Below, in pieces: positions 3,683 through 5,694 of a DNA stretch of 64,000 nucleotides. The stretch is from an uncultured Prevotella sp. (GTDB lineage: Bacteria > Bacteroidota > Bacteroidia > Bacteroidales > Bacteroidaceae). The notes beneath the pieces were generated by a model, which saw nothing but the letters and a program-made list of their open reading frames with translations, was not told the DNA's origin and did not search any database. The position numbers and the translations under genes are program-made. The DNA lies in assembly GCA_900315635.1 (NCBI GenBank), contig OMZV01000012.1, positions 7,109 to 71,108 of the forward strand, read 5' to 3'. Each line of letters begins with the position of its first letter. Within the stretch, counting starts at the first letter, position 1.

Positions 3683-3761
3683 TGAGACTCTCGAGGCTAT
3701 CGAGATGGCTCATCGTCATGGTTACAACACTGTAACTTCTCACCGTTCAGGCGAGACTGAG
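3683..3761 (+). repeat. Exact 79-bp inverted copy of eno coding sequence 4546..4624
   Basis: tgagactctcgaggctatcgag...gcgagactgag is the reverse complement of 4546..4624 and encodes [26 protein letters not shown]. Confidence 0.95.
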
Positions 3762-3780
3762 AACAGAACAAATACTATAT

Positions 3781-3906
3781 AATAAGATGGCTAGTCAATG
3801 ATAAGGTGACTAGTTAATAATAAGATGGCTAGTCAATGATAAGGTGACTAGTTAATAATAAGATGGCTAGTCAATGATAAGGTGACTAGTTAATAATAAG
3901 ATGGCT
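3781..3906. repeat. 38-bp tandem repeat x3 plus a partial unit
   Basis: aataagatggctagtcaatgataaggtgactagttaat at 3781, 3819 and 3857. Confidence 0.95.
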
Positions 3907-3989
3907 GGTTAAATAGAAAGAGAAGGAGAAGGAAAAGGAAAAGACATAAGAGTGGATAGAAAGTAAAGACGACACCTAAGTAGAAGTAC

Positions 3990-4228
3990 GATGAGAGGAT
4001 GGATAAAGGATGATGAGAGGATGGATAAAGGATGATGAGAGGATGGATAAAGGATGATGAGAGGATGGATAAAGGATTATAGGATGATAAATAAAAGATG
4101 ATAAGAGGATGGATAAAGGATTATAGTATGATAAATAAAAGATGATAAGATGATGGATAAAGGATGATGAGATGATGGATAAAAGATGATGAGAGGATGG
4201 ATAAAAGATGATAAGATGATGGAAGATG
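3990..4228. repeat. Purine-only-like 22-bp tandem repeat (4 exact units) decaying into variants
   Basis: gatgagaggatggataaaggat at 3990, 4012, 4034 and 4056, then diverged copies. Confidence 0.9.
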
Positions 4229-4239
4229 AATAAAGGCAT

Positions 4240-4270
4240 AAAAAAACTGCCGAGCAAAAGCCCGGCAGCT
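4240..4270 (-). terminator. Intrinsic terminator of eno
   Basis: Minus strand ctgccgggc-tttt-gctcggcag followed by a T-tract. Confidence 0.8.
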
Positions 4271-4322
4271 AGTATTATAAATGAGAGAAGTATTAAATCT
4301 ACTTCATGTAAAAGACCAAAGC

Positions 4323-4407
4323 CTGATTACTTGAGTTTTGTGTAACCTCAATCTGATTACTTAAGCTTTGTGTAACCTCAATCTGATTACTTAAGCTTTG
4401 TGTAACC
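4323..4407. repeat. 30-bp tandem triplication of the eno 3' end
   Basis: ctgattacttaagctttgtgtaacc unit at 4383 and 4353, variant ctgattacttgagttttgtgtaacc at 4323. Confidence 0.9.
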
Positions 4408-5694
4408 ATACTTTGCTACAGGACCAAGCTCCTCCTCAATACGGATAAGCTGGTTGTACTTAGCCATACGGTCGGTACGGCTCATAGAACCGGTCTTGAT
4501 CTGACCAGAGTTTGTAGCAACAGCGATGTCAGCGATAGTAGTATCCTCAGTCTCGCCTGAACGGTGAGAAGTTACAGTGTTGTAACCATGACGATGAGCC
4601 ATCTCGATAGCCTCGAGAGTCTCAGTCAGAGAACCGATCTGGTTAACCTTGATAAGGATAGCGTTAGCAACACCCATCTTGATTCCCTTCTCCAGGAACT
4701 TAGTGTTAGTTACGAAAAGGTCATCACCAACGAGCTGAATCTTGCTACCAAGAGCCTTTGTAAGCTTCTGCCAGCCTTCCCAGTCGTTCTCATCAAGACC
4801 ATCCTCGATAGAAGCGATAGGATACTTGTTGCAGAGCTCCTCAAGGTACTTGATCTGACCCTCATCGTCAACTTCCTTACCATTAGGATCCTTAGGCATG
4901 CCGTTGTTCAGCTGCTTGTAGTTGTAGTACCACTTGCCATCCTTCTGATAAGCGAACTCAGAGCTTGCGCAGTCCATAGCGATGGTAACGTCCTTACCCG
5001 GCTCGTAACCAGCGTCCTTGATAGCCTGGCAGATGCTCTCAAGAGCGTCGTCAATACCATCGAGCTCAGGAGCGTAACCGCCCTCGTCACCTACTGCTGT
5101 AGAGAGACCGCGCTTCTTCAGGAGCTTGCCCAGAGCGTGGAAGACCTCAGCACCGCAACGGATAGCTTCCTTCTCAGAAGAGAAGTTACGCGGCTGAATC
5201 ATGAACTCCTGGAAAGCGATAGGAGCTGAAGAGTGAGCACCTCCATTGATGATGTTCATCATTGGGATAGGCAGAGTGTATGTGTTAGCTCCACCGATAT
5301 AGCGGTACAGAGGAATATTGAGAGCCTTAGCAGCTGTGTGAGCAACAGCGAGGCTGACACCGAGGATAGCGTTAGCACCGAGCTTGCTCTTAGTAGGAGT
5401 ACCATCGAGCTCAAGCATCTTGTAGTCGATAGCGCGCTGCTCCAGGACATTCCAGCCCTTGAGTGCAGGAGCGATAATCTCGTTCACGTTCTTGACAGCC
5501 TTCAGGACGCCCTTACCGCCGAAACGGTTCTTGTCGCCATCACGAAGCTCAAGAGCCTCGTTCTCACCGGTACTGGCACCAGATGGAACACTTGCACGAC
5601 CCATAACGCCGTTGTCGAGGGTTACGTCTACTTCAACTGTTGGATTGCCACGTGAGTCAAGAATCTCGCGAGCATGTACTTTCTCAATCTGCAT
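4387..5694 (-). CDS. eno: Enolase (phosphopyruvate hydratase)
   Basis: [37 protein letters not shown] and QIKTGS motifs. Confidence 0.99.

Follow-up and report, generated by a model that had tools for sequence, protein, structure and literature searches.

We analysed a 64,000-nucleotide window from the draft genome of an uncultured Prevotella species (2.75 Mb in 57 contigs, 47% G+C, assembly 96% complete). The enolase gene, eno, is located on the minus strand (4387..5694), and its 435-aa open reading frame matches the Pfam domains Enolase_N and Enolase_C (E = 2e-123). Among the enolases of the species collection, the nearest again comes from an uncultured Prevotella, and other near ones belong mostly to Prevotella or Segatella. 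A tblastn search of the whole assembly returned no second enolase, and eno is thus a single-copy gene. Downstream of eno on this strand, the neighboring gene (1231-2784) codes for a secreted protein of 517 aa, which belongs to no convincing family and matches PQQ_2/BamB and SpvB weakly, below threshold. The two genes are separated by a 1.6-kb spacer. Read along the eno strand, the eno stop codon lies within a 30-bp tandem array, which is followed by an intrinsic terminator, a 22-bp array, a 38-bp array, and 17 unique bases. An inverted copy of part of eno comes next, then a (TAGAA)n microsatellite with a quasi-palindrome, a 20-bp array, and ∼650 bp of unique DNA near the 517-aa gene, which harbors several TGTG-N6-CACA palindromes and leads up to the promoter of that gene.

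All four tandem arrays vary in copy number among strains. The 30-bp array (4323..4407, minus strand) takes in the final 7 codons of eno together with its stop codon and has 2.8 copies here (1 to 9.8 among strains). The 22-bp array (3990..4223) is purine-rich and is present in 10.6 copies (about 5 to 21 among strains). The 38-bp array (3779..3906) has a 19-bp sub-period and 3.4 perfect copies (about 1.5 to 13 among strains); each unit contains an 8-bp hairpin, and the DNA fold of the array has a z score of -4.5. The 20-bp array (3479..3613) has 6.8 copies (4.8 to 7.8 among strains). Array copy numbers repeat between independent samples (contig L022 equals L024, and L018, L020, and L025 equal each other), and five of ten eno-bearing contigs stop inside the 38-bp array. 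None of the four array units occurs elsewhere in the genome. Genome-wide, we count 122 tandem arrays (period ≥12, ≥3 copies) with 22 bp as the commonest period, and slippage is thus a genome-wide trait. Two open reading frames in the spacer (90 aa at 3471-3743 and 93 aa at 3976-4257) are repeat-derived and have no credible family, and we discarded them.

An earlier note on this DNA had described an exact 79-bp inverted copy of enolase coding sequence in this repeat-rich spacer, and our analysis bears this out. The source arm (4546..4624, minus strand) is located inside eno and codes for a 26-residue stretch, and the copy (3683..3761) reads as eno sense on the plus strand. Positions 3683-3761 (+) and the reverse complement of 4546-4624 are identical at 79/79 positions, and the match stretches to 82 nt with one mismatch (3680-3761 versus 4546-4627). 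An exact match of 79 nt cannot have arisen by chance. The arms are 785 bp apart and bracket a segment of 784 bp (3762-4545), and of all perfect close inverted repeats genome-wide this one is the longest. The arm sequence has these two copies and no others in a whole-assembly search, and a link to the CRISPR array at 52.3-55.2 kb was rejected on these grounds.

The left junction (3652..3683) consists of the (TAGAA)n microsatellite, whose pentamer copy number is strain-variable, running into the quasi-palindrome. We find the fold-back palindromes at this junction as they had been described, namely AATAGAAT-AG-ATTCTATT at 3661-3678 and ATTCTA-T-TAGAAT at 3671-3683. Their predicted single-stranded DNA fold is weak (-3.8 kcal/mol, z = -1.5). 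A GAGACT motif is present at each end of the copied segment, and a 'GA' is shared just outside the left end.

The locus is filled with repeats and comes from a 57-contig draft, and the inverted copy could in principle be an assembly chimera of this single genome. When the enolase protein was looked up by exact match, ten independent contigs from gut metagenomes came back, and a junction pattern search added one further contig from a JGI metagenome, in the native orientation. Every contig that spans the spacer (L017-L021, L028, and L033, from seven independent assemblies) contains the 79-bp copy, and both junctions are identical. The contigs differ in their study and assembler of origin, and one of them is 184 kb long. 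Since identical junctions recur in independent assemblies, the copy is not an assembly artifact of this genome, and we give the chimera that the earlier note had listed next to no credence. In 400 other species of the genus the copy junction is missing, as it is from the species-representative collection of genome contigs; relatives match within eno alone. We also inspected 80 other Bacteroidales eno loci, and in none of them does a repeat arm fall inside eno. The copy is species-specific and present in every strain sampled.

We compared seven strains that had been picked regardless of copy status. The unique flank at 2950-3470 is variable at 26 of 520 sites, from which 3.95 variable sites would be expected in the copy; we observe 0 of 79 (Poisson P = 0.019). 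Unique segments nearer to the arm, for which the expectation was estimated from per-strain mismatch counts, give about 3.5 expected sites; over the range of about 3.5-4 expected sites, P is about 0.02-0.03. The eno genes themselves differ between strains at 0-10 of 1311 positions. In L019, the eno arm carries a synonymous TCA>TCT change that is unmatched in the copy, and homogenization of the arms is thus not instantaneous. The lack of variable sites in the copy suggests, on modest evidence, that it is either young or held eno-like by occasional gene conversion. With one arm under strong coding constraint, eno would mostly serve as the donor in conversion and the copy as the recipient. The earlier reading of the copy as very recent has to be tempered: a young origin stands as one option, and the copy is found in all strain backgrounds sampled, including those that are ∼4% divergent in the adjoining unique DNA. 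The invariance also suggests ongoing arm-to-arm recombination or direct constraint on the copy, and to this extent it would count against a neutral scar. The same lack of variation would result if the eno region had recently undergone a sweep.

The eno terminator, which had been placed near position 4240, is confirmed at 4245..4270 on the minus strand, composed of an 11-bp stem and a downstream tract of seven U. Its predicted RNA fold in the eno direction is strong (-21.5 kcal/mol, z = -6.4), and in the opposite direction the fold amounts to -13.4 kcal/mol and lacks a U tract. The Bacteroidetes sigma-A promoter consensus, TAnnTTTG at -7 with TTTG at -33, was used in a motif scan. We located candidate -7 boxes for eno (TAATTTTG, 5750..5757) and for the 517-aa gene (TACCTTTG, 2824..2831), both on the minus strand and each with a TTTG 24 nt upstream. 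The latter gene thus has its own nearby promoter, well apart from the arrays. Between 2832 and 5749, the scan found no TAnnTTTG box with a -33 TTTG on either strand. An Rfam scan of 2500-6500 yielded noise below the threshold and no family above it.

These signals bear on the suggestion that the copy supplies an antisense RNA to eno. Its strand logic is sound: a minus-strand transcript over 3683-3761 would be complementary to, and would pair with, the eno mRNA. Read-through of the terminator, or a promoter in the arrays that our consensus does not recognize, would then place 79 nt of antisense in a 3' extension of eno or in the 5' leader of the 517-aa gene, and duplex formation with eno would tune enolase levels. 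The conservation of the copy above that of the neighboring unique DNA would be in line with such a role. The remainder of the suggestion lacks support. The motif scan detects no promoter that would drive the antisense strand across the element, the strong terminator sits between eno and the copy, all Rfam families are sub-threshold, and pairing would not require 79/79 identity. We consider a role at the RNA level improbable.

With inverted repeats around a 784-bp segment and one arm within a coding sequence, the locus has the geometry of an inverton. When we inverted 3762-4545 in silico, eno was truncated to 389 aa, ending after GETE with NRTNTI and a stop codon. This reproduces the earlier prediction that a flip swaps the last 52 eno codons for NRTNTI-stop. 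The other side of the inverted segment yields a 71-aa open reading frame (MAHRHG...TKLK) that has a stop ahead of it. The truncation takes away the lysine of the QIKTG motif and the last barrel elements, and from general knowledge of the enolase fold we presume that loss of the last 52 residues abolishes enolase activity, and we accordingly expect flipped cells to be unable to grow on sugars. We also considered whether a second enolase could render the flip harmless and rejected this, the tblastn search having found a single eno. The alternative coding end amounts to six codons and a stop, which we regard as junk.

We next asked whether the predicted products occur in public assemblies. An exact look-up in about 15 billion proteins located the 389-aa product on 2 contigs, each <2 kb, versus 181 contigs for the native protein, and the 71-aa open reading frame on 9. 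The junction that connects the eno head via the arm to the NRTNTI side is present in L029 (MEGAHIT k141, 1.9 kb) and L030 (k119, 1.6 kb). The reciprocal junction, from the left flank of the spacer via the arm to the eno tail, is present in L031 (k127, 7.5 kb), L032 (6.9 kb), L034, L035, L036, L037, and L040. L037 is a SPAdes contig with 1.7x coverage, and L040, from Logan at k=31, encodes a 107-aa protein that clusters with the 71-aa reading frame. In total, there are nine flipped-junction contigs from at least eight samples, among them ERR2597441/ERZ943925, ERZ27280398, ERZ27249709, ERZ28563960, ERZ28612977, and ERZ28658236. Long native contigs were obtained, for example, from ERZ27279868 and from ERZ4903705, which appears to have been assembled from long reads. 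In several of the flipped contigs, the flipped orientation extends over most of the loop. They span two strain backgrounds and several studies; for the background of the window itself, the window and L017 show the native orientation and L034 the flipped one. All flipped contigs are ≤7.5 kb in size, and the 24 longest eno contigs and the 24 longest contigs with the 517-aa gene are all native. Among the samples with flipped contigs, none yielded both types of flipped junction. A homology search with the chimeric C terminus found no further truncated eno fragments beyond the two exact contigs; the nearest partial match (P0022, L129) comes from another species with 87-88% DNA identity and lacks the repeat. 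Eno-tail reading frames of 71 aa in another species (P0011) were also rejected, as they stem from contig breaks at a k-mer conserved across species and not from inversions.

The native and the flipped arrangement have identical sets of canonical k-mers at every k ≤80. They thus give the same assembly graph, and a contig that passes through the arm reflects pruning of this graph rather than the orientation of the DNA. L037 (for which we take the default SPAdes k values to lie below 80) and L040 are flipped even though their k cannot resolve the arm, which demonstrates that such run-throughs do happen. A mis-join could arise in the following way. The 17-nt stretch between the copy and the 38-bp array would abut a collapsed, high-depth cycle, and a short, low-depth edge of this kind may be removed by graph cleaners. 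In addition, co-resident Prevotella may share the DNA sequence of the eno head next to the arm; this is where contigs of another species break as well. The MEGAHIT k values of 141, 127, and 119 exceed the length of the arm, and if the junction k-mers are derived from reads, flipped DNA would be appreciably frequent. MEGAHIT passes contigs from small k into later rounds, and a final k of 119-141 is therefore no proof of read support for the junction. We infer that the flipped-junction contigs are mostly or wholly graph mis-joins at a repeat ≤80 nt beside collapsed arrays. A flipped subpopulation, if small, would likewise be lost by pruning where coverage is high, and assemblies thus cannot settle the orientation.

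The same contigs are an argument for a real, recurrent, and reversible inversion between the arms, which would flip the 784-bp segment and convert eno between its full-length and a truncated 389-aa form. The locus would then count among the gene-overlapping ('partial intergenic') invertons, with a central glycolytic gene as its target, and would be operated by homologous recombination or by a distant recombinase. Apart from the predicted products in public assemblies (the 389-aa protein on L029 and L030, the reciprocal junction on L031, L032, and L034-L037), this reading can draw on flipped contigs from more than one strain background and study, on both orientations in the background of the window, on arms that are in concerted evolution or constrained, and on the weakness of the terminator in the reverse direction. 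Invertons that create premature stops in metabolic genes are known, for example in thiC of B. thetaiotaomicron (PMC10028968). However, eno is the sole enolase, and flipped cells should fail on sugars. The arms are copied coding sequence, unlike a typical recombinase site, all long contigs are native, and the two flipped junction types never come from the same sample. Together with the k-mer equivalence and the flipped contigs L037 and L040, this makes a true inversion rather unlikely in our view. The geometry and the product that the earlier note had proposed for an inversion substrate are thus borne out, and contigs with the predicted junctions exist; its ON/OFF allele is a candidate, set against which are the shortness of the flipped contigs, the equivalence at k ≤80, the single eno, and the lack of a nearby recombinase.

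No recombinase is found in or near the locus. A genome-wide profile search returned no match to serine recombinases (PF00239) and four to tyrosine recombinases (PF00589), the nearest of which is about 62 kb away, just outside the window. Some known invertons likewise lack a nearby recombinase (PMC9881135). Homologous recombination between 79-bp arms is expected at low rates, and if the flip is lethal, such cells would be rare. A working switch would require that a subpopulation reversibly truncates its only enolase and turns glycolysis off, as a form of bet-hedging or dormancy, with the strong eno promoter reading through to the secreted protein. We hold this to be unlikely. After a flip, the terminator would be reversed and weak, and the eno promoter could read toward the 517-aa gene. 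This putative read-through is the one feature that would lend any logic to a switch.

Gene-overlapping invertons (Milman et al. 2023, PMC9881135; Chanin et al., PMC10028968) resemble the eno locus in having one arm in the coding sequence and the other just outside, and in that a flip would alter the 3' end of the gene. The thiC inverton of B. thetaiotaomicron (PMC10028968) offers a parallel, with a flipped form that has a premature stop in a metabolic gene. The eno locus differs from the described gene-overlapping invertons (PMC9881135, PMC10028968) in the lack of a nearby recombinase, in an arm that is a 79-bp copy of the gene itself rather than a short recombinase site, and in an alternative end that is not a homologous coding module. 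The target here is a single-copy and probably essential glycolytic gene. In a programmed inverton, both orientations are expected to coexist in one population, as seen in reads that span an arm; at eno, the two orientations come from assembled contigs. In gene conversion between repeats that flank inversions, as at eno, the arms are identical and unique flanks vary by strain; the eno arms are very short by comparison, and the statistical support is modest (P about 0.02).

Bacterial quasipalindrome template-switch events usually involve a few to tens of bases. Template-switch mutations and inverted duplications (PMC7202029, PMC8794818, PMC7954356) share with our locus a short inverted copy less than 1 kb from its source, a small (here weakly folding) palindrome at one junction, a slippage-prone setting, and absence from relatives. 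The eno copy lies 785 bp from its source and is lacking in the 400 species and 80 eno loci surveyed. It differs from the usual bacterial events in that 79 bases are copied, that the copy is fixed in the species, and that it shows no divergence from its source.

We thus favor a template-switch scar that is fixed in the species and has no programmed role, and we think this is probably the correct explanation. Of the alternatives that the earlier note had grouped together, the scar is the best-supported origin, and the assembly chimera falls with the seven independent assemblies. A replication template switch or fold-back in the slippage-prone spacer downstream of eno would have generated an inverted micro-duplication, and the same spacer would also have yielded the four strain-variable arrays. 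One array duplicates the eno stop region, and this, together with slippage at the locus and across the genome, counts for the scar. The copy would have no programmed function, given that it has no predicted transcription of its own, no recombinase of its own, and an alternative end of six junk codons and a stop. The identity of the arms would stem from a recent origin in the species lineage, from occasional RecA-type conversion by the constrained eno arm, or from both. The arms would remain a latent substrate for recombination, a crossover would truncate the sole enolase, and such cells would be lost; the flipped state would therefore be rare in living populations. Most or all of the contigs with flipped junctions would be graph artifacts or rare lethal recombinants. 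If crossovers are lethal, the perfect repeat should be slightly deleterious, and only a young age would then account for its presence in every strain.

Should the flipped contigs represent real DNA, phase variation would reach beyond surface and accessory genes into core metabolism in an abundant gut anaerobe. A true switch would mark the first case of a core glycolytic gene controlled by inversion, and it would use a copy of the gene's own coding sequence and not a recombinase site. If the contigs are mis-joins, the locus serves as a warning case, in that any inverted repeat of length k or less leaves the two orientations with the same k-mer set. Public assemblies and protein catalogues would then contain 'inverted alleles' that do not exist, exact predicted proteins included. 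Whichever reading holds, the four strain-variable arrays make the spacer useful as a strain marker for the species.

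The sole enolase gene of the genome (eno, window 4387-5694, minus strand) carries a 30-bp tandem array at its 3′ end (window 4323-4407) that includes the stop codon and the last 7 codons. The array ranges from 1 to 9.8 copies among strains and leaves the enolase protein unaltered, and the same copy numbers were recovered from independent samples.

One position within eno recurs as a contig boundary. Contigs L041-L048, L033 and L038 each start no more than 1-2 nt from a single eno ATG, which encodes the methionine of the IEMAHRHG motif, and the contigs with this start point derive from many different samples and represent two or more species. 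The sequence just 5′ of the ATG is common to co-resident Prevotella at the nucleotide level, and assembly graphs break there. In a contig of a related species (L129, 87-88% DNA identity), two ORFs of 236 and 173 amino acids are called for eno at 643-1867. Either a frameshift or an error in the assembly accounts for this split. Downstream of it lies a gene for a Rep3-type replication protein.

Two other inverted repeats were found. The first, on contig C33 of the window's genome (4468-4543 and 4870-4944; 77 nt, 92% identity), has a 327-bp spacer and the dimensions and form of a classical invertible promoter. The second is located on L127, from an uncultured Duncaniella MAG, an unrelated Muribaculaceae genome (2218-2404 and 3969-4155; 188 nt, 90% identity). 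Its arms enclose the entire enolase gene and could represent either the end pair of a mobile element or a whole-gene inverton.

Downstream of eno, several TGTG-N6-CACA palindromes such as TTGTGTACGTGCACA and TTGTGTTCGTGCACA are found upstream of the gene for a 517-aa secreted protein (window 2886-2900, 3259-3273, 3289-3318 and 3334-3348), and resemble operators of a Crp/Fnr-type regulator.

The CRISPR array at window 52307-55201 (33-nt repeat GTTTCAACCCACACGCCCCGTGCGGGGCGTGAC, spacers of ∼34 nt) is unrelated to the 79-bp inverted copy of eno sequence. A family of short 22-bp tandem arrays with the common core GGGTATCTTTTA / TAAAAGATACCC is dispersed over window 11480-11548, 36784-36855 and 51757-51803 and more than 25 further genome sites, with 3-5 copies at each; one such array lies ∼400 bp upstream of a gene for a 1482-aa LRR protein. 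A second recurrent array family consists of 9-bp units of the TAGGCATAA type, with periods of 18, 27 and 36.
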